Assembly: GCA_016839275.1 (NCBI GenBank)
Contig: JAEOUM010000025.1
Span: forward strand, 895 to 64,894
DNA: 64,000 nucleotides
Origin: Candidatus Thorarchaeota archaeon
GTDB lineage: Archaea; Asgardarchaeota; Thorarchaeia; Thorarchaeales; Thorarchaeaceae
Reading direction: 5' to 3'
Within the stretch, counting starts at the first letter, position 1. Every line of letters begins with the position of its first letter. Below are positions 29,503 through 53,960 of the stretch, one piece after another. The notes below the pieces were generated by a model. That model was not told where the DNA came from. It did no database searches and saw only the letters and a list, made by a program, of their open reading frames with translations. Both the position numbers and the translations under genes were made by a program.

Positions 29503-29576
29503 GCAGGGAAATGGCAGACGTCAGTACCTTTTTTTCCACAATACAATCCTCACTTTGTCTATGACATGTGATTACC

Positions 29577-30425
29577 ATGACAGTACCGTGGGAAAATGAA
29601 AGACATCTGGTGGAAGCAACAAAAGAACCAATCACAAAGAAGAGGTTAGTTGAAGATCTGCATAGAGCAGGAATTGAATCCGGTGATACGGTTCTTGTAC
29701 ATACTTCAATGCGTAGCATCGGCTGGATAGTGGGTGGCGCAGTGACTGCAATAGCGGCGTTAATGGACGCTGTAACCAAGGAGGGTACACTTGTCATGCC
29801 TACTCAGTCCACAGAAAATGGCGAACCATCCAGATGGCAACGCCCTGCGGTTCCCGAGAATTGGTGGGAAACAATCCGGGAAGAGATGCCACCATATGAT
29901 CCAGAGATAACACCTACAAGGAAAATGGGAATCATTGCAGAAACATTCAGAAAGTACCCAAGAGTATTTCGAAGCCCTCATCCTCAAGCATCATTTGGAG
30001 CGTGGGGTAAAATGGCACAATATGTAGTCGAGAAGCATCCAGTAGATGATGTTTTTGGAGATAACAGTCCTCTTGGAAGACTCTATGATCTAGATGCGAA
30101 GATACTACTGATTGGTATTGGTCTGAATGCAAATACCTCTCTGCATCATGCTGAGTTTAGGGCTAAATTACCAAATATGCCAAGAGAACACCTTGGAGTT
30201 GCAGTTCTAGATAATGGAAGGCGGGTCTGGAAAACATGGGAGCAGATTGAGTATAATGACGATGATTTTCCAAAGATAGCAGCGGACTTTGAAGAAAGGA
30301 CAGGTCGCACCCCAGTCTTTATTGGACAGGCTGAGAGCCATCTCTTTCCAATGAGAGATTTGACAGATTTTGGCGTAAAATGGTTACAGAAGAATCGTGT
30401 TTATGAACAAGTAAATGATTCGTAG
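29577..30425 (+). CDS. aminoglycoside 3-N-acetyltransferase (AAC(3)) family protein
   Basis: LVEDLHRAGIESGDTVLVHTSMRSIGWIVGG...GTLVMPT and NTSLHHAE match AAC(3)/YokD-family blocks. Confidence 0.7.
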   Translation: MTVPWENERHLVEATKEPITKKRLVEDLHRAGIESGDTVLVHTSMRSIGWIVGGAVTAIAALMDAVTKEGTLVMPTQSTENGEPSRWQRPAVPENWWETIREEMPPYDPEITPTRKMGIIAETFRKYPRVFRSPHPQASFGAWGKMAQYVVEKHPVDDVFGDNSPLGRLYDLDAKILLIGIGLNANTSLHHAEFRAKLPNMPREHLGVAVLDNGRRVWKTWEQIEYNDDDFPKIAADFEERTGRTPVFIGQAESHLFPMRDLTDFGVKWLQKNRVYEQVNDS

Positions 30426-30517: not shown

Positions 30518-30865
30518 TCACTCACGTTCGGACTTGATTGCTTCAAAGGCTAGATGTTTGGCAGATTCTCGTTTCTTGCTAATGTCCCTTGCCTGATCCC
30601 GAATCTCTTCGAAAAGAGACTTGCGGGCATATACGGTCCTTTCGACAAAGGCGGCTACTGCTTCTGAGCGACTCTTGAAGATCTCGAGCTCAACAAGAGC
30701 GTCAAGTATCTCCACAATGTCCGCACTCATTCGTGTCATTACAGAAATCTCGCGATTCAGTTGCCCAATATCGCCTCGCTCAATTCGTCCCAACAATTCG
30801 TCCCTGAGGCTGGTCCTCTCGGTTGTTTCTTCTGTTCCTGCTTTCTGTTTTGACGTGCGTCTCAC
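30518..30865 (-). CDS. ribbon-helix-helix DNA-binding protein (paralog of 8361-8687)
   Basis: TSLRDELL...ISVMTRMSADIVEILDALVELEIFKSRSEAVAAFVERTV is colinear with the 8361 product (TSLRDRVL...IPVVARMNKRVVEILDSLVAIGVFKSRSEAAAALVEGAI). Confidence 0.7.
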   Translation of the reverse strand: MRRTSKQKAGTEETTERTSLRDELLGRIERGDIGQLNREISVMTRMSADIVEILDALVELEIFKSRSEAVAAFVERTVYARKSLFEEIRDQARDISKKRESAKHLAFEAIKSERE

Positions 30866-31034
30866 CCCATGTTTTCACTAGGTGCAATTAAACTTCCAAT
30901 TTTGCGCTATTTAAAGTTTCATGTATTGGCTGATATATAATATTGTTACAAATTTGTTGCTGTAGACATTTACAGTGGATAGTGTATTAAAAACTGGCCC
31001 CATAATGGAAAGAAATGGAATGGGGTGATAAAGA

Positions 31035-31811
31035 CTAGTCGACATTCTCTTGAGATTCGATCTTCTTGCGAATCCTCTCGACTGCAGTAGAGAATCGTTC
31101 TGCCGCTCTTGATAGTTCTTCTAGAACCTCTGGAGAAGGATCACTCATGATCACTACTGGAAGACTCTGGAGAGTATCAAATAGGCCCAGGAGAGGTGGA
31201 GGAAGAGCGTCAAGTCGTTCAAAGATTAGAGGTAATGGTCCGGGGAAAGGAGAAAACCCTTGCACAATCTTTTCACGAAGCTCGCCACTACTGTCAATCT
31301 CGGTTTCAAGAAACTGCAATCCCTTATCTGTGAGCTCGTATCGACGAGTCTTCTCATCAGTATCAGCGAGTTCTCGAGTCAATCCATCTTGAAGGAGACT
31401 CTTCAGTAATGGATAGATAGAACCCGGTTTTGGTTTCCATCTGCCAGCTGTTTCCTCTTCGATAGCTGATGTCAACTCAGCTCCAGACATTGGGTGTTCC
31501 TTGAGAATATGCAGTACCCTGTATCGCAGGAAGCCCTTGGGAACAATGGCAGTATGCTGTATCCACTTCTGTACAATACTGGGTTGTCCAACATGGTCCC
31601 TGAATTTGGCTAATCGCTCCTCTGAGAGATAGTATTTGTTGCCGACCTGTATTATAGGGTTTATATCAGGGGGCACTGGAGGTTTCACATGTCGAAACAT
31701 TTCAGGGATGCCTAGTTCTTTCAGGCTTATTGCCTTCTCAGGCGTAGTCGCACCTCGTTCTCGAAATGTATCTACTAACCTGCGAAAGGGACTGAACATA
31801 ATCTCTTGCAT
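31035..31811 (-). CDS. PadR-family transcriptional regulator with N- and C-terminal extensions
   Basis: RYRVLHILKEHPMSGAELTSAIEEETAGRWKPKPGSIYPLLKSLLQDGL...RRYELTDKG is the canonical PadR wHTH. Confidence 0.75.
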   Translation of the reverse strand: MQEIMFSPFRRLVDTFRERGATTPEKAISLKELGIPEMFRHVKPPVPPDINPIIQVGNKYYLSEERLAKFRDHVGQPSIVQKWIQHTAIVPKGFLRYRVLHILKEHPMSGAELTSAIEEETAGRWKPKPGSIYPLLKSLLQDGLTRELADTDEKTRRYELTDKGLQFLETEIDSSGELREKIVQGFSPFPGPLPLIFERLDALPPPLLGLFDTLQSLPVVIMSDPSPEVLEELSRAAERFSTAVERIRKKIESQENVD

Positions 31812-47701: not shown

Positions 47702-49630
47702 ATGGGTCATATTAGTAGACTCACAGGGTATGCCATGAGGAGGAAGAGACTCTTCTTTGGCTTTCTCACTGCATCGGCAATTGGTACTGCATTCAATCTC
47801 TTCACACCACTTGTAATGATTGAAATAGTCGATCTGGTCATTCTAGGTAATCAACTTGATTTGCTCATCCCATATACAGTACTCTTCGTGGGATTGGGTG
47901 TTTTTTACGCGATATTTGATATGCTCGGACGTTATGGATCTGCGGTCTCATCGCAGTTTGTAATCTATTCTCTACGTGAGGAACTCTATGAGAGTTTGAT
48001 GGAAAAAGACCTCGCATTTTATGACCAGAATGAAACAGGGCAATTACTTGCACGTGTGACAACAGATGTCAGTACAATGAGGGAATTCCTCTATTGGGGA
48101 TATCGTGTCTTATTCATTGGAGCGGCGCAATTGATTGGAACCTATATTGTGATGTGGAGTGTGAGTGTTTCACTGACAATGTACATGTTTTTGCTAATAC
48201 CAGTTATTTTCGTATTCATCTATGTCTTTGCGAAAAAGGTTAGACCAGTCTTTCTTAGCGCCCGAAATCAGTATGGTGTACTCAGCTCAGTATTAGCAGA
48301 GAACGTTGTTGGACACAAGGTTGTACGAGCATATGCGTCTGAAGATAGAGAGGCAGACAGAGTTGAGAGAGAAAACAGGGGATTTCTTGATCGAAGAGTA
48401 CAAGCAAGTAAACTAGAAGCATTCTTTCAACCCATGTTACCATCCTTATTTGGAATAGCAATTGGGTTTCTGATATATATCGGAGGATATGCGATTATTG
48501 AATCATTAGATCTGACTCTTGGTGAGTTTGTTGGATTCATCTCCCTTGTAGGAATGCTTGTGCTACCAGCGCGTTTCTTAAGTTGGGGGGTTGGTATGTA
48601 TCAGAGAGCATCAGCCTCCGGGGACCGTACATTCTACATACTCGATTCTATTGATGAAGTGATGGATCCAGAGAACCCAGTGGATGCCTCAGGATTTGTA
48701 GGAGCTGTCGACTTTCATAATGTATCATTCAGCTATAGAGGCGGCAGTTACATCTTGCGTGATGTTTCCCTCCATATTCGACCGGGACAGATTGTGGCGC
48801 TTTTAGGAGGGACTGGTTCAGGAAAGACGAGTCTTGTGAATTTGATTCCACGGTTCTATGATATTGATGATAATAGTACAGTCGTATACGAAGGTAGAAC
48901 CTATCGAGTGAGTGAAAAGGGAATTGTACTCATCGATGGTGAAGAATACAAAGTCGTAGACGGTTATGTCGATATTAAGGGAAATATTCTGGAAGTACGA
49001 GCTCCAGGAAAGATATGCATAGATGGAATAGATATCAGGCAATACAGACTCAACGACCTCAGAAAACGTATTGGTATGGTCCACCAAGATCCATTCTTGT
49101 TCTCAACCACGATTCGTGAAAATATTGCATTTGGTCGTACAGAGGCATCCCTCGAGGAGGTAATGGATGCCGCAAAAGCCGCTATGATTCATGATTTTAT
49201 TATGACCCTCGAGATGGGATATGATACGGAGATTGGAGAAAGGGGTGTTACTCTAAGTGGAGGACAGAAGCAGAGGTTAGCTATTGCACGAGCTCTATTG
49301 GCAAATCCCCGAATTCTAATACTTGACGACTCCACAAGTTCAGTTGATGCCAAGACCGAGATGCTCATACAGAAGGCTCTTGAAAACTTGATGACTGGCA
49401 GAACGACATTCATCATTACACATAGATTGAGCACGGTGCGCAACGCAGATCTAATAGTAATCATGGAGCGGGGGCAAATTGCTGAGAAAGGTAGTCATGA
49501 GGAACTTATAGCAAGTGAGGGAATATACAACAACATCCACCAGACTCTCACAGAAATGGAACTAGCGGCTAGTGTGTCAATAGATCCGTTTGTTGTTACC
49601 AAGGCATCTGGAGGCGATAATGATGAGTAG
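47702..49630 (+). CDS. ABC exporter fused permease/ATPase subunit (with an atypical NBD insertion)
   Basis: Six-TM domain, Walker A GGTGSGKTS, signature LSGGQKQR, Walker B ILILDDSTS, H-loop ITHR. ~46 extra residues lie between Walker A and the Q-loop. Confidence 0.85.
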   Translation: MGHISRLTGYAMRRKRLFFGFLTASAIGTAFNLFTPLVMIEIVDLVILGNQLDLLIPYTVLFVGLGVFYAIFDMLGRYGSAVSSQFVIYSLREELYESLMEKDLAFYDQNETGQLLARVTTDVSTMREFLYWGYRVLFIGAAQLIGTYIVMWSVSVSLTMYMFLLIPVIFVFIYVFAKKVRPVFLSARNQYGVLSSVLAENVVGHKVVRAYASEDREADRVERENRGFLDRRVQASKLEAFFQPMLPSLFGIAIGFLIYIGGYAIIESLDLTLGEFVGFISLVGMLVLPARFLSWGVGMYQRASASGDRTFYILDSIDEVMDPENPVDASGFVGAVDFHNVSFSYRGGSYILRDVSLHIRPGQIVALLGGTGSGKTSLVNLIPRFYDIDDNSTVVYEGRTYRVSEKGIVLIDGEEYKVVDGYVDIKGNILEVRAPGKICIDGIDIRQYRLNDLRKRIGMVHQDPFLFSTTIRENIAFGRTEASLEEVMDAAKAAMIHDFIMTLEMGYDTEIGERGVTLSGGQKQRLAIARALLANPRILILDDSTSSVDAKTEMLIQKALENLMTGRTTFIITHRLSTVRNADLIVIMERGQIAEKGSHEELIASEGIYNNIHQTLTEMELAASVSIDPFVVTKASGGDNDE

Positions 49631-51458
49631 AACCCTCGATGGTGCAGATGATCCAGATGCAAGAACGTATGAATATTCAGATTCTACTCTCTTAATCCGT
49701 ATGGTCAAGTACCTTCTTGCCTATAGAAGGTTGTTTGCGGCAGTCATCGTAGTTACAGCTGTGACAATCATTCTGAGTGTCTGGTCACCGTTTGTACTCA
49801 AGCAAGCCATAGATGTTGATTTTGTCAATCTTGACTTGCAATCACTTATCCTTACAGCTACTTTGTATGTGCTATTACAAGTCTTCACTTGGATATCGCT
49901 CTATGGCAGCGGGTACCTAATGGCATTCATGGGACAGAAAGCTGTCTATGATATCAGACAGGAATTATACAATCATCTGCAGGAAATGTCAGAGGAGTTC
50001 CATGATCACTCGTCAAGTGGCAGAATTATATCAAGACTCACCAATGATGTAGATAGAATGAGCGAGCTCTTGGGTGGGGAACTCATCAATACCTTTGCGC
50101 AAATCTTTGTTGTCTTCGCTATCGGATGGGCAATGTTTGTGGCCGACTTCCGGCTTGCAGTAGTCTCACTGATGATAATACCAATTCTCCTCATCACAAC
50201 GATTTATTTCCGAAAGAAGATGAGAGAAGCCTATCGACGAACAAGAAAAACGATATCGAATGTTACATCTAATCTTGCTGAGAGCATATCAGGTGCAAAG
50301 GTCACTAAGAGCTTCGCAAGAGAGAGAACGAGTGCTGAAATCTTCGCGAGATATAATGAGTCAGACTATCAATCCAATGTCGAAGCAGGTAGAGCTCAAG
50401 CAGCATTTTTCCCTGTTATACGATTCATCAGTGGACTTGGCACAGCCATAATATTGCTCTTTGGAGGCTGGTTTATCCTTGATTCGAGCTTTCTCTACAT
50501 TAACCCAATTCTGACTCCTATTGTCACCATCGGGACTGTTGTAATGTTCGTTCAATTTAGTGACCGTTTCTTCAGACCAGTCCTTACAATTGCTAACTTC
50601 TATACTGCTGTTCAGAGTGCTTTTGCTGGAGGAGAAAGAGTCTTCTCGATTTTGGATACAGAGTCATCAGTCCAGGATTCTTCTGACGCACTCACAATGC
50701 CGGAGGTAAAGGGACATGTCCTATTTGATAATGTGACATTTGGATATGGCGAAGGACCTGTTGTATTGGAAAACTTCAACCTAGAGATAGAACCTGGAGA
50801 AACTATTGCAATCGTAGGTGATACTGGAGCAGGAAAAACAACAATTGTGAATCTATTGAACAGATTCTATGATGTGCGTAGTGGTTCTATAAAGATTGAT
50901 GGAATCGATATCAAATCTGTCACACAGCGTTCGCTCCATTCGCGGATTGGTCTTGTTCTTCAAGATGCGTTTCTATTCATAGGTACGGTCAAAGAGAATA
51001 TACGATATGGAAATCCAAATGCTACAGATGATGAAATTGTAGCAGCCCTTGATGCTATAGGAGCAAGAAGGATTATTGTGAATCTTGAAAAGGGGCTCGA
51101 TACCGAAGTAGGCGAACGTGGCGCAGGACTCTCCGAAGGTGAGAGACAACTAGTGAGCTTTGCCAGAGCTCTTCTTGCTGATCCCAAAATCCTCATACTT
51201 GATGAGGCAACAAGTTCCATTGACATCTATACTGAGTATGCAATCCAGAAGGGTTTGAAAGTCCTCTTGAAGGGACGAACATCCATAGTCATAGCCCATA
51301 GGTTATCGACCATTGTAAATGCGGATAGAATCGTAGTATTGGAGCATGGAAAAATCGTTGAGTCTGGAAAACATGCAGAACTGATGCAACTCAAAGGAAA
51401 GTATCATTCACTCTATGACTTGCAAATTCGCCCGCGGGCTATACAACGGAGCCTCTAA
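49620..51458 (+). CDS. ABC exporter fused permease/ATPase subunit (partner)
   Basis: Walker A GDTGAGKTT, signature LSEGERQL, Walker B ILILDEATS, H-loop IAHR. The start ATG overlaps the upstream stop by 11 nt. Confidence 0.85.
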   Translation: MMSRTLDGADDPDARTYEYSDSTLLIRMVKYLLAYRRLFAAVIVVTAVTIILSVWSPFVLKQAIDVDFVNLDLQSLILTATLYVLLQVFTWISLYGSGYLMAFMGQKAVYDIRQELYNHLQEMSEEFHDHSSSGRIISRLTNDVDRMSELLGGELINTFAQIFVVFAIGWAMFVADFRLAVVSLMIIPILLITTIYFRKKMREAYRRTRKTISNVTSNLAESISGAKVTKSFARERTSAEIFARYNESDYQSNVEAGRAQAAFFPVIRFISGLGTAIILLFGGWFILDSSFLYINPILTPIVTIGTVVMFVQFSDRFFRPVLTIANFYTAVQSAFAGGERVFSILDTESSVQDSSDALTMPEVKGHVLFDNVTFGYGEGPVVLENFNLEIEPGETIAIVGDTGAGKTTIVNLLNRFYDVRSGSIKIDGIDIKSVTQRSLHSRIGLVLQDAFLFIGTVKENIRYGNPNATDDEIVAALDAIGARRIIVNLEKGLDTEVGERGAGLSEGERQLVSFARALLADPKILILDEATSSIDIYTEYAIQKGLKVLLKGRTSIVIAHRLSTIVNADRIVVLEHGKIVESGKHAELMQLKGKYHSLYDLQIRPRAIQRSL

Positions 51459-51579: not shown

Positions 51580-52347
51580 CTAGTCATCCCAATCAAAGTC
51601 ATCCACGTTATCATATGGAAATTCTTTCATAGTCTGCTTCATGGATTTAAGTGACTTCAAGCCTTTTAGACCCTTCATCGCCTCAGTCACTGATTCTGTG
51701 ACAATCTGACCAATGTCCATGAAACTGTCCAAGCCATGAACTCCACCCTTGCCAACGATGATTTGTTTGCCATTCTTTCCTGTAACGACAACTCCAGACT
51801 TACTGACCGAAACTAAGTTATCATCGCCCAAGACGAAGACCTGCTTTCCATATGTGAAGACTAGTCCTCTCTTCTCACTCAAGACAAGTATGAGTTTAAT
51901 CTCCTCAGAATCTCTGCCAAGGAAGATTTGTGATGGTTCTCTCTGGTCAATCTTAGTCTGCGAATGATCACCATTCAGTTGGTCCTTCATTGCTGACTCA
52001 ATTTCTGCCATAAATGATTGAGTGTTCTGAAATCCTTGTTTCTGAAGATCTGACGCATCTGGACTCTTTGATATGTTCTCCAGAGAGACGACTCCTATGT
52101 AGAACTGGACACCTTGCAGAGAGCCAGATATCGATTCACCCATTGCACCAACCTTGGTTTCAGCAATGGCATCGACAGCAAACTGAGAGGGCCCTACAAA
52201 TGCAGCACCAACTCGTACGTCATCCTCGAGAAGGTAGACCCATACACAGCCAGCCTCCATCTTTACAAAGGCCTTCTCGTGGGAGATTAGCTCATGGTTT
52301 TCAGTAGTGACCATGATGGTAGTATCAGGTGTCAATTTTCTCATCAC
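51580..52347 (-). CDS. hypothetical protein ending in an acidic DDFDWDD tail
   Basis: 255-aa soluble ORF with no motif I can name. It lies 12 nt downstream of the ArsR-like gene, whose product ends DDLDWED. Confidence 0.55.
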   Translation of the reverse strand: MMRKLTPDTTIMVTTENHELISHEKAFVKMEAGCVWVYLLEDDVRVGAAFVGPSQFAVDAIAETKVGAMGESISGSLQGVQFYIGVVSLENISKSPDASDLQKQGFQNTQSFMAEIESAMKDQLNGDHSQTKIDQREPSQIFLGRDSEEIKLILVLSEKRGLVFTYGKQVFVLGDDNLVSVSKSGVVVTGKNGKQIIVGKGGVHGLDSFMDIGQIVTESVTEAMKGLKGLKSLKSMKQTMKEFPYDNVDDFDWDD

Positions 52348-52359
52348 ATTCTTCCTCCT

Positions 52360-53289
52360 TTAGTCCTCCCAGTCCAAATCGTCAATATCATCCTCATCCT
52401 CATCCTCGTCTTCAGCCTCTTCAAGTGCATCCTGTGCCTCTTCAATCTTATCAGCTACCTCTTCAATCTGGTCCTGAGCTCTTTCAATCTGCTCTGCAAC
52501 TCTTTCAAGATGCTCAGCTGCAGCTTCAAGATCTTCCTCATCCTCAATCACAACAGTGTCACCCTCATCATCAGAAGACTCATCGAACTCAATATCAACT
52601 CTGGTTTCGCCATTGTTTCCAGTCTGTTCTCTCTGTCGCTCAACCCTGTGAGTAAGCCATTGGGCTAGACGATATGCCAGACGACCTTCAACCGTGACAT
52701 AGTATGTTCCTCGTACCTCTCCCTTTACTACATATCCAGCTTCGACAAGGGGATTCAGATGGTGTGTGAGAGAGCTGCCTGTCTTCTCCGTGAAGCTCTC
52801 AATCTCATTGAAGGTCTTCCCCCCACTCTTGAGATAATCCAGAATACCTAGACGCTCTTCACTTCCTAGAGGCGCAACTATCTTTGCTATTCGTTCGGGA
52901 GTAATTGCCTCAATATCCTTCCTTCTTGCAGCCTTCCCTCTTCTACCGCTTGTGCGAATACGAACACCAGGTATCTTGAAGCCTTTAGCAATACCATCGA
53001 AGTCCTTGATGGACGTTTCAATTGAACGACCAAGATCATCCATCATGTCCTCAAGACTATCTGTGATTCCAGCAATGTCAATTTTCATAGGTCTTACTGG
53101 TCGCACGGGGCGGGGTTCTCTTGGAGGCCGTGGAGGTCGTGGAATCTTACTATCTTTCAATGCACTAGCTCTCCTTCGAAGAATTTCTTCTTTCTCTCGC
53201 TTTGCATCCTCGACCTCTCGTCGGAGCTCTTCCTTAAGCTTTCGAACTTCTTCAAGTTCCTTCTTGATATCATCGATGTGTTCGGTCAA
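52360..53289 (-). CDS. ArsR-type wHTH protein with N-terminal coiled coil, proline-rich segment and long acidic C-terminal coiled coil
   Basis: The core RLGILDYLKSGGKTFNEIESFTEKTGSSLTHHLNPLVEAGYV is an ArsR/SmtB-type HTH. Flanked by KELEEVRKLKEELRREVEDAKREKEE, PRPPRPPREPRPVRPVRP and EDEDEDEDDIDDLDWED. Confidence 0.65.
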   Translation of the reverse strand: MTEHIDDIKKELEEVRKLKEELRREVEDAKREKEEILRRRASALKDSKIPRPPRPPREPRPVRPVRPMKIDIAGITDSLEDMMDDLGRSIETSIKDFDGIAKGFKIPGVRIRTSGRRGKAARRKDIEAITPERIAKIVAPLGSEERLGILDYLKSGGKTFNEIESFTEKTGSSLTHHLNPLVEAGYVVKGEVRGTYYVTVEGRLAYRLAQWLTHRVERQREQTGNNGETRVDIEFDESSDDEGDTVVIEDEEDLEAAAEHLERVAEQIERAQDQIEEVADKIEEAQDALEEAEDEDEDEDDIDDLDWED

Positions 53290-53322
53290 TGTATTTCAAC
53301 AACTGTACATTATTACAGTTTG

Positions 53323-53330
53323 TATATAAA
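53323..53330 (-). promoter_or_regulatory. TATA-like box for the ArsR-like operon
   Basis: tatataaa (TTTATATA on the coding strand), ~34-41 nt upstream of the ATG at 53289. Confidence 0.4.
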
Positions 53331-53726
53331 TGTATCTAATTACAGTAAGAGGGTTGATGCCGACTCGTTGTCAGTGATAGATCATTACCCACTGGGAGCA
53401 GACATGGAATCTTTAATCGTACTGAGAATCGAAATCATAGTGATGAAGCAGAAAACACCAAACAAACTCTACTCTCTGTGACGCAAATAATTGAATCTCT
53501 AAGACAGCCAAGAACTAGTTGAGATGCCCACGAAATTAGAATTCTACATGGTTTATGACGTCAAATGAGGACTCTGTTGGAACCCATCAAACAAGCCTGC
53601 TGAGGCATTCTATGCGACATATGCTTATTAACAAGATGACTAAGAAAAGCTTCACCTTTGCTTGGGGGTGCGGAAACAACTTGTTGCCAGCCTTTCCACG
53701 CAGGAAACCACATTAGGGGTAAAAAA

Positions 53727-53960
53727 ATGTCAAAGAAAGCAAAACCAGCGGCTAAGCCAGCTAAGAAAGCAGCAGCTAAGGCACCAAAGTATACCTTCTA
53801 TGTTAAGAAGGCAATACAAGACTTTGCCAGAGACAACGACATGATGGTCGGAAGTGATGCATACGATGCATTCAACATGGCCGTCAACCACATGCTGCTC
53901 GATGCTGCAGGACGCTGTAAGGATAACAAGCGAAAGACCCTGAAGGCTTACGACTTCTAG
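53727..53960 (+). CDS. histone-fold (DUF1931-like) protein with Lys/Ala/Pro-rich N-terminal tail
   Basis: The tail MSKKAKPAAKPAKKAAAKAPK is followed by YVKKAIQDFARDNDMMVGSDAYDAFNMAVNHMLLDAAGRCKDNKRKTLKAYDF, which fits the helix-loop-long helix-loop-helix histone-fold pattern ending in RKT.k..D. A GGGGT Shine-Dalgarno-like element lies 7 nt upstream of the ATG. Confidence 0.6.
   Translation: MSKKAKPAAKPAKKAAAKAPKYTFYVKKAIQDFARDNDMMVGSDAYDAFNMAVNHMLLDAAGRCKDNKRKTLKAYDF

Follow-up and report, generated by a model that had tools for sequence, protein, structure and literature searches.

A conserved acidic-tryptophan tail, a candidate docking peptide, on two paired Asgard proteins encoded beside an alpha3-truncated histone

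The window analysed here is a stretch of 64,000 nucleotides (nt) from a Candidatus Thorarchaeota archaeon (assembly GCA_016839275.1, contig JAEOUM010000025.1, positions 895 to 64,894), in which two co-directional genes at 51580-53289, here called A and B, encode proteins that end in nearly the same acidic, tryptophan-containing peptide. The motif is sharply defined and strongly conserved, it sits on a DNA-binding regulator and on a protein with no fold match, and the gene pair lies almost always beside the gene of a tailed alpha3-truncated histone, H. The reading favoured here, with a probability of about one half, is that A and B form a regulator/partner module, that the shared tail is a docking peptide, and that it lets the two bind to, or compete over, a single receptor surface. 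The two genes and their tails are as follows, with coordinates in the window and local model confidence (predicted local distance difference test, pLDDT) where it applies:

52360..53289, minus strand: gene A, a 309-amino-acid (aa) ArsR-type winged-helix DNA-binding protein with a TTG start (open reading frame, ORF; Pfam HTH_5)
51580..52347, minus strand: gene B, a 255-aa uncharacterised beta-rich protein (ORF; homologues)
52363..52389, minus strand: A tail DIDDLDWED-COOH, an instance of PHI-D-x-PHI-D-W-x-D (conservation; predicted disordered, pLDDT ~54)
51583..51609, minus strand: B tail NVDDFDWDD-COOH, the same PHI-D-x-PHI-D-W-x-D motif (conservation; predicted disordered, pLDDT ~51)

A ends ...DEDDIDDLDWED and B ends ...YDNVDDFDWDD. 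A sequence-only reading of this stretch had called the two ends nearly identical, and both fit the pattern [LIVMF]D.[LIVMF]DW.[DEN]$. Retention of the tail in orthologues had been set beforehand as one test of the docking idea, and the tail is retained: with 120 homologues scored per family, the pattern is present in 119/120 A homologues and 119/120 B homologues. The A tail has L, I, V or M at position -7, D at -6 in all 120, L, M, F or I at -4, D at -3 in all 120 and W at -2 in 119; the B tail reads V (120), D (119), D (113), F (119), D (120), W (120), any residue, D (116). The acidic C-terminal region of A, ~84 aa long, has low column conservation compared with the tail, and its acidic stretch before the tail is poorly conserved where the motif itself is fixed. 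Near-invariance of D(-6), D(-3) and W(-2), while the preceding region of A drifts, points to selection on the motif.

Acidic, tryptophan-containing ends might simply be common by composition, a doubt raised with the original observation, and the counts dispel it. The window contains 289 stop-to-stop ORFs of 60 aa or more, and such an end is confined to A and B. A relaxed rule (at least five D/E among the last 12 residues plus an aromatic residue in the last four), applied to 429 mechanically called ORFs of at least 80 aa from 29 related Asgard loci, picks out A and B homologues only. The charge context of the tail is opposite in the two families: over the 120 homologues, D/E make up 50% of positions -70 to -8 in A and 8% in B, where K/R account for 15%, which argues that the tail is a discrete module and not an effect of composition. 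A chance or compositional resemblance with no function would draw on the low-complexity acidic C-terminal region of A, where D-rich ends are expected, but it is effectively refuted by the tryptophan, both hydrophobic positions and the aspartates being fixed in 119/120 of each family, by the basic segment that the B tail follows, and by the lack of any other ORF with such an end in the window or the 29 Asgard loci.

Both tails are predicted to be disordered, and the AlphaFold2 (AF2) monomer models show no confident intramolecular docking of either; a disordered tail in two charge contexts fits a portable docking peptide. The B motif is kept down to ~35% identity, at times with one to four extra acidic residues after it (for example ...DWDDDE), and is absent in the shortest and most distant members (~200 aa; Bathyarchaeota, Hodarchaeota). 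The common denominator of the tails is an acidic run with a tryptophan among the last three or four residues. Searches of the PDB sequences with both tail peptides gave no matches, and the literature searches found no account of the tail motif, the B family or the histone-A-B neighbourhood, the motif strings returning irrelevant matches only. A position at, or at most four residues from, the C-terminus in nearly all members is also what C-degrons show, and a stability signal common to two co-expressed proteins would coordinate their turnover by one protease or adaptor. A shared degron is nevertheless most unlikely: an acidic-tryptophan end is not known to be recognised by any protease or adaptor of archaea, the literature searches for the motif gave nothing relevant, and an adaptor would itself be a common partner, which makes the degron a special case of docking.

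The docking reading gains breadth from look-alike tails in other genomes. A DNA scan with the back-translated tail pattern, run over one genome per species (GTDB), gave at least 119 loci. Among the matches listed, the Asgard ones that end a real ORF are all A or B homologues. In Bacteroidales the tail occurs at a minimum of ~24 loci, on S4-domain Hsp15-like proteins of 134-170 aa that end ...GRPTKKERRDLEQF...FD.FDWD[DE]-COOH (among the matches listed, L007, L009, L014, L015, L024, L034, L042, L052, L056, L057, L063, L073, L090, L102, L108, L109, L113, L115, L120, L123 and L125), and at least two Obg GTPases of Paludibacteraceae (L098, L122) end ...NFDEFDWDD. The comparison indicates that the same tail peptide is recruited independently onto unrelated Bacteroidales proteins. 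Hsp15 and Obg both bind the 50S subunit, and this property common to the two bacterial carriers suits a portable docking tag. No literature on a tail of Bacteroidales Hsp15 or Obg was found. A few small bacterial and phage proteins among the matches listed end similarly. Three related IMG/VR viral contigs (L129, L135, L143) encode proteins of 64-78 aa that end ...FD.EFDKVDWED, each with a hydrophobic segment that may span a membrane.

A and B had been regarded as otherwise unrelated neighbours with a shared tag, and this part of the sequence-only reading has to be revised. The two ORFs themselves are where it placed them, 12 nt apart on the minus strand, with A first and B (GTG start) second. 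Within the gap lies a Shine-Dalgarno-like element:

52353..52358, minus strand: Shine-Dalgarno-like AGGAGG in the A-B gap (read from sequence)

The homologues of B begin one codon later, at the equivalent of ATG 52344, which gives 254 aa and an A-B gap of 15 nt; this is the probable true start. Across all loci the two genes overlap by up to ~13 nt or stand no more than ~15 nt apart, a spacing compatible with co-transcription and with translational coupling. At every locus inspected the gene directly upstream of B is an HTH_5 gene of the A type: the Thorarchaeota loci L001, L003 and L004, the distant metagenome locus L005, which is tail-less, the Bathyarchaeota loci L126 and L127, and twenty-odd further Asgard loci. 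Synteny in relatives, on which the proposal also depended, therefore holds at every locus examined, including those of tail-less Bathyarchaeota relatives at 25-30% identity, where the two genes are still adjacent. Since tail-less relatives, Bathyarchaeota among them, keep the gene pair, the pair is older than the tail; the homologues indicate that A and B are an ancient co-translated pair and that the tail was gained later. Fusion proteins of A and B are not present among the 79 B representatives, all of at most 268 aa, and a tblastn search of B against plasmids for a haloarchaeal HVO_A0261-type fusion gave no match. In the window A and B share a reading frame, with TAA and four codons (RRKN) between them (52345-52362), so that read-through of the stop would give a fusion; the arrangement is probably incidental, as spacing and frame vary at other loci.

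The architecture first read for A, a charged N-terminal helix, a Pro/Arg run, an ArsR winged helix and an acidic tail, is confirmed by sequence, Pfam and AF2. Its parts, besides the terminal motif, are:

53158..53283, minus strand: A aa 3-44, long charged N-terminal helix (AF2 helix, pLDDT 75-88)
53089..53142, minus strand: A aa 50-67, proline/arginine-rich linker PRPPRPPREPRPVRPVRP (read from sequence; predicted disordered, pLDDT ~40)
53005..53070, minus strand: A aa 74-95, conserved amphipathic helix GITDSLEDMMDDLGRSIETSIK (conservation; isolated AF2 helix of low confidence)
52615..52935, minus strand: A aa 119-225, winged helix-turn-helix (wHTH) with recognition helix GSSLTHHLNPL (Pfam HTH_5, HTH_20; AF2)
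52390..52614, minus strand: A aa 226-300, acidic region with a long acidic helix at aa 251-293 (composition; AF2 helix)

A has 336 homologues, mostly labelled Thorarchaeota, and its N-terminus agrees with their consensus M.D.IDDIKKELEE, which supports the TTG start. Pfam HTH_5 (PF01022) matches aa 144-187 at E 1.5e-6 (28.4 bits against a cutoff of 22), HTH_20 also matches the winged-helix region, and the A profile matches PDB entry 4ggg, a 'Repressor protein', at E 0.0015. The NCBIfam model HTH_metalloreg stays under its cutoff (25 vs 55 bits); NCBIfam and PADLOC gave generic wHTH (Csa3-like) matches only. AF2 builds the helices and the beta-wing of the winged helix at pLDDT 66-86, in a model with a mean pLDDT of 65.9. 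As read from the sequence, A has no cysteine and no recognised metal-site pattern; the lack of cysteine means that the usual ArsR/SmtB metal sites are absent and that A is not a classical metal sensor. It would be at most a non-metal-sensing member of the ArsR superfamily.

The N-terminal helix, in which I8, E11, L12, L18, L22 and E25 are invariant, is kept in the distant Bathyarchaeota homologues and is probably a coiled-coil oligomerisation element. The helix at aa 74-95 has ten invariant residues (T76, S78, L79, E80, M82, M83, L86, G87, I90, E91) in a pattern recognisable in tail-less distant homologues, and may be the contact for B. All Thor/Hermod homologues of A examined have Pro-rich, mostly basic versions of the linker, which is absent from A of Bathyarchaeota L126 and L127 and of the unassigned distant locus L005. 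A coupling of this linker with the tails was considered and is unsupported: A of L126 has an acidic-aromatic tail and no linker.

The promoter of A contains two palindromes on either side of a probable TATA box:

53302..53319, unstranded: perfect palindrome ACTGTA-N6-TACAGT, putative operator of A (between the A TATA box and start codon)
53323..53330, minus strand: TTTATATA, probable TATA box of the A-B operon (read from sequence; TTTATAT(A/G) conserved)
53329..53346, unstranded: second copy of the palindrome, imperfect (AATGTATCTAATTACAGT), immediately upstream of the TATA box (position conserved across loci)

TGTA-N(5-10)-TACA occurs at most 60 nt upstream of A in 22/26 loci, including Bathyarchaeota L126, and two of the four loci that lack it look like over-extended ORF calls. 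TTTATAT(A/G) is kept between the two palindromes at most loci. Archaeal repressors usually have an operator downstream of the TATA box and ahead of the start codon, and it is this position that suggests autoregulation: A probably represses its own operon through the two TGTA-N6-TACA palindromes. A near-perfect copy (GCTGTAGACATTTACAGT, one mismatch) lies in an intergenic region of the window at 30959-30976. The minus-strand ORF downstream of it (30518-30865) encodes 115 aa, has no Pfam match and itself lies just downstream of a PadR-family gene (31035-31811). This copy could be a second target of A, at a chance expectation of ~2 window sites with at most two mismatches.

Protein B is without a recognisable motif, as originally stated, and this now extends to structure. 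It has no Pfam, NCBIfam or PADLOC family, Pfam run on 63 members of the B family gave scattered single-member noise only, the B-family profile finds nothing in the PDB below E 0.5, and a Foldseek search of the AF2 model against PDB and BFVD gave no match (best E 0.03-0.04, template modelling score at most 0.28). An exact-sequence lookup of the window protein returned no record. The family comprises 209 close homologues; when 1.84 billion cluster representatives were searched exhaustively, it came to 79 representatives (50% clustering), which reach Bathyarchaeota and Hodarchaeota. The AF2 model (mean pLDDT 86.8, predicted template modelling score 0.78, tail ~51) runs from an N-terminal all-beta domain through two helices and a stack of beta-hairpins to lysine-rich helices:

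52096..52335, minus strand: B aa 5-84, N-terminal all-beta domain (AF2 strands, pLDDT 83-98)
51736..51933, minus strand: B aa 139-204, stack of beta-hairpins (AF2 strands, pLDDT 84-97)
51640..51732, minus strand: B aa 206-236, lysine-rich helices (...AMKGLKGLKSLKSMKQTMK) before the tail (AF2 helices, pLDDT 53-84 by 10-residue block)

The only columns at least 90% conserved across the 63 divergent members are G47, G52, D59, I61, T64, G67, A68 and G70. Because the sole family-wide invariant residues cluster there, aa 47-70 are likely to form a functional or ligand site. Several distant, tail-less B homologues of other archaea (P0266, P0276, P0278, P0292, P0296, P0310 and others) carry Cys-, His- or Trp-rich ends such as ...HCCH, ...FYCC, ...DHCCL and ...HDYW; short tags peculiar to a lineage seem to arise readily at the C-terminus of the B family.

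The gene divergent from A had been described as a tailed histone-fold gene, and the alignments agree:

53727..53960, plus strand: gene H, an alpha3-truncated protein of the histone fold, 77 aa long, whose N-terminal tail is lysine-rich (phmmer; Pfam; divergent from A)

Pfam Histone matches H at E 3.9e-4, below the cutoff, and phmmer gives a full-length alignment of H (aa 16-77) with HLp, PDB 9QT0 (aa 4-65), at E 7e-4; the termini read ...KAYDF in H and ...RPTDF in HLp. By this alignment H has the histone fold that defines the alpha3-truncated family, in which alpha2 is shortened and only 3-4 residues of alpha3 are left (PMC11390915, PMC12701072); HLp is a tetrameric member of that family and wraps DNA (PMC12701072). 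H is the immediate neighbour of A in 24/25 evaluable loci, the exception being L078. The two genes are divergent at most loci, ~19 besides the window, and co-directional in the order H, A, B at L079, L084, L086, L093 and L107, which belong to one Thor/Hermod clade. The linkage thus survives an inversion of orientation, which argues for a functional connection. The chromatin role that had been thought conceivable is backed by this conserved adjacency as far as the link to the histone gene goes; an interaction of A or B with the histone itself would be a further, conjectural step. The recent papers on archaeal and Asgard histones that were consulted make no mention of the H-A-B neighbourhood.

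The N-terminal Lys/Ala/Pro tail of H ranges from none to ~20 residues by lineage. A conserved promoter-like box (ACATATGCTTATTAA) lies ~95-100 nt before the H ATG, in the window and in homologous genes of L001-L121, and implies a long leader; RNAalifold found no conserved RNA structure in this ~100-nt leader (3 pairs, no covariation). A shared operator upstream of the histone gene was considered as well and rejected, as the palindrome is absent there.

From these features we infer autoregulation by A, an A-B complex, docking through the tail and the nature of the receptor, which would act together as follows. (i) A would be a sequence-specific ArsR-type winged-helix protein, probably oligomeric through its N-terminal helix, which probably represses the A-B operon at the two TGTA-N6-TACA palindromes bracketing the TATA box. 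(ii) B would be the co-translated partner of A, and its beta-rich fold, with no known relative and one invariant surface patch, suggests that it is possibly a sensing or modulating subunit. (iii) In Thorarchaeota and in Hermod- and Sif-archaea, both carry a flexible PHI-D-x-PHI-D-W-[EDK]-D-COOH, whose tryptophan and two hydrophobic residues may insert into a shallow pocket while the aspartates contact a basic rim. (iv) The tails of A and B would then engage, or compete for, the same receptor surface, most likely a basic nucleic-acid-binding one, for which the adjacent alpha3-truncated histone is the first candidate.

Several observations weigh against this picture. The A tail varies between lineages more than the B tail: in a second Thor/Hermod clade A ends ...EEEDW-COOH or ...DEEDEW-COOH, in Bathyarchaeota L126 it ends ...DDEEEFW-COOH, and in the Thor lineage of L004 and L088 it ends ...DDDVEDEPE, with no tryptophan, where B keeps ...DDLDELDWDD. 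This variation means that A and B may use the tail differently. The one to four extra residues after the motif in some B relatives make a fixed-register carboxylate clamp unlikely. H is not adjacent to the pair at Bathyarchaeota L126 and L127, though A of L126 has an acidic-aromatic end, and the A-type palindrome was not found in the histone promoter. A third tail-bearing Asgard family is possible, the GTDB scan being a sample of at least 119 loci and not a census. The tail receptor, finally, stands as a candidate only.

The basic surfaces within A and B also suit a different arrangement, in which the tail is an autoinhibitory nucleic-acid mimic that folds back onto the A winged helix, the RRGKAARRK linker or the lysine-rich helices of B within the A-B complex and gates DNA binding, no third protein being required. 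Acidic tails of the SSB/gp2.5 type vie with DNA for the binding cleft of the very protein that carries them, and T7 gp2.5, with its acidic tail and terminal aromatic, is a precedent. A, a DNA-binding protein, contains a basic linker, the lysine-rich helix of B directly precedes its tail, and the bacterial look-alike tails are likewise on nucleic-acid-binding proteins (S4-domain Hsp15, Obg). We consider this arrangement possible but rather unlikely: the AF2 monomers show no confident docking of either tail (pLDDT ~51-54), a strictly kept tryptophan with two hydrophobic residues suggests a shaped pocket and not pure charge mimicry, and the stricter conservation of the motif in B than in A is left unexplained, as B has no known DNA-binding domain.

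Among the neighbouring genes, two ABC exporter genes are convergent to A-B, in the window (47702-51458) and also at Thor L001, L003 and L004, where L004 ends at the contig edge. At Bathyarchaeota L127 the genes after A-B, all running the same way, are a further small HTH_5 gene and two ABC-2 transporter pairs. These transporter neighbours may be coincidental or may hint at a regulatory target of the module. Elsewhere in the window (29568-30425) a 285-aa ORF has a strong Pfam match to aminoglycoside 3-N-acetyltransferase (Antibiotic_NAT, E 4e-89), here in an Asgard genome.

Short linear docking motifs common to unrelated proteins organise much of eukaryotic regulation. To our knowledge few have been documented in archaea, namely PIP boxes, MIM2, HbYX and the CdvA tail. 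Through the module described here, two archaeal families that have so far been uncharacterised would receive an initial working role; A comes with a testable putative operator, the tail peptide can be used as bait for a hub protein, and the occurrence of this tail on Hsp15 and Obg of Bacteroidales suggests that the principle operates in bacteria too. As a long shot, Thorarchaeota might use a eukaryote-style acidic-tryptophan docking code that plugs A and B into a hub, be it the tailed alpha3 histone, an actin-related protein or a protein of the transcription machinery. If this were true, motif-mediated regulation of chromatin or the cytoskeleton would predate the origin of eukaryotes, and the near-identical tail found on Hsp15 and Obg in Bacteroidales would point to a class of docking peptides in prokaryotes that is wider and has gone unrecognised.

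Compared with known systems, the tail comes closest in sequence to the acidic motif of the WASP family. N-WASP ends ...DFEDDDEWED and WASP ends ...DEDDEWDD (PMC6624021). The tryptophan of WASP-family acidic domains lies at or near the terminus, often with an F or Y upstream, and in some members is itself the last residue (PMC3298513); it inserts into shallow pockets on ARPC1 and Arp3 (PMC10944109). The ends ...DDIDDLDWED of A and ...VDDFDWDD of B likewise have an acidic run and a tryptophan two from the end followed by [DE]D, and the members that end in W resemble the ...EEEDW variants of A. The carriers are different, however, one being a DNA-binding winged-helix protein and the other a beta-rich protein with no fold match; the D-x-PHI-D-W register is much more rigid in the A and B tails; and, unlike in WASP VCA, a winged helix lies between the Pro-rich and acidic regions of A. 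No WH2 was matched in A or B at Pfam E values up to 1 and no C helix was identified, and membership of the VCA class fails.

This resemblance feeds a rival explanation in which the tail is a eukaryote-like effector, an activation-domain or WASP 'A'-type peptide that recruits either an actin-related protein or transcription machinery such as TBP, TFB or RNA polymerase. With DWED and DWDD at the very end, the tails nearly copy EWED of N-WASP and EWDD of WASP, a tryptophan at or near the terminus, often with an upstream F or Y, is typical of the family (PMC3298513), a proline-rich stretch joined to sequence-specific DNA binding in A would suit the acidic/aromatic region of a transcription factor, and the Asgard host group has homologues of actin, profilin and gelsolin (PMC7444086). 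Even so, such an effector appears decidedly unlikely. A has no WH2 match or C-helix, a palindrome placed after the TATA box and ahead of the start codon points to repression and not activation, and short acidic-tryptophan peptides can evolve by convergence, of which the tails in Bacteroidales and phages are examples. The Arp2/3 complex is not known in Thorarchaeota, a distant ARPC4-like protein being reported in some Heimdallarchaeota only (PMC7444086), and Arp2/3 as the receptor of the Thorarchaeota tail was rejected, as the literature gives it no support.

By logic, the docking-peptide reading has its closest match in the tails of E. coli SSB (SSB-Ct) and of T7 gp2.5 and gp4, an analogy already drawn for SSB by the sequence-only reading and one that stands. 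The unrelated gp2.5 and gp4 of the single T7 genome share such a tail for one receptor. SSB-Ct and gp2.5 tails are disordered and acidic, depend on an essential terminal aromatic residue and bind a basic patch on the partner, which for gp2.5, with its essential terminal Phe, is on the polymerase (PMC12339929 and its references 41 and 42). A resembles them as a nucleic-acid-binding protein with a disordered acidic tail and a near-terminal aromatic residue. They differ in that B bears the tail and has no known nucleic-acid-binding domain, and in that SSB and gp2.5 act in replication and have F as the last residue itself, whereas no replication genes lie beside A-B. Kinesin light-chain TPR domains bind tryptophan-acidic cargo motifs, [LM]-x-W-[DE] in an acidic context, which unrelated cargoes share; L-D-W-E of A fits this literally and F-D-W-D of B nearly so. 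That system is a eukaryotic motor whose motifs are internal, and no TPR receptor is linked to A or B.

The other analogues that had been suggested for the tail do not match in sequence. HbYX is rejected, as the ends are W-E-D and W-D-D with no penultimate Tyr. MIM1 is a Leu- and Arg-rich amphipathic helix and MIM2 a proline-rich pattern; a MIM is rejected for a tail that lacks an Arg/Lys-Leu helix pattern and is predicted to be disordered, and a PIP box is likewise rejected on sequence. With autoregulated ArsR/SmtB repressors A shares the HTH_5 winged helix and conserved palindromes overlapping its own promoter, and it differs from them in its coiled coil, Pro-rich linker, acidic helix, candidate docking tail and obligate pairing with B. 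H aligns end to end with the alpha3-truncated histones of the face-to-face type (HLp, HTkC) and has the same ...KR.T...DF terminus, but adds a lysine/alanine/proline-rich N-terminal tail of variable length and is fixed beside a wHTH and B-type pair. The tail is best described as a putative variant of the acidic-aromatic C-terminal docking device, carried by a previously undescribed Asgard module linked to an alpha3 histone.

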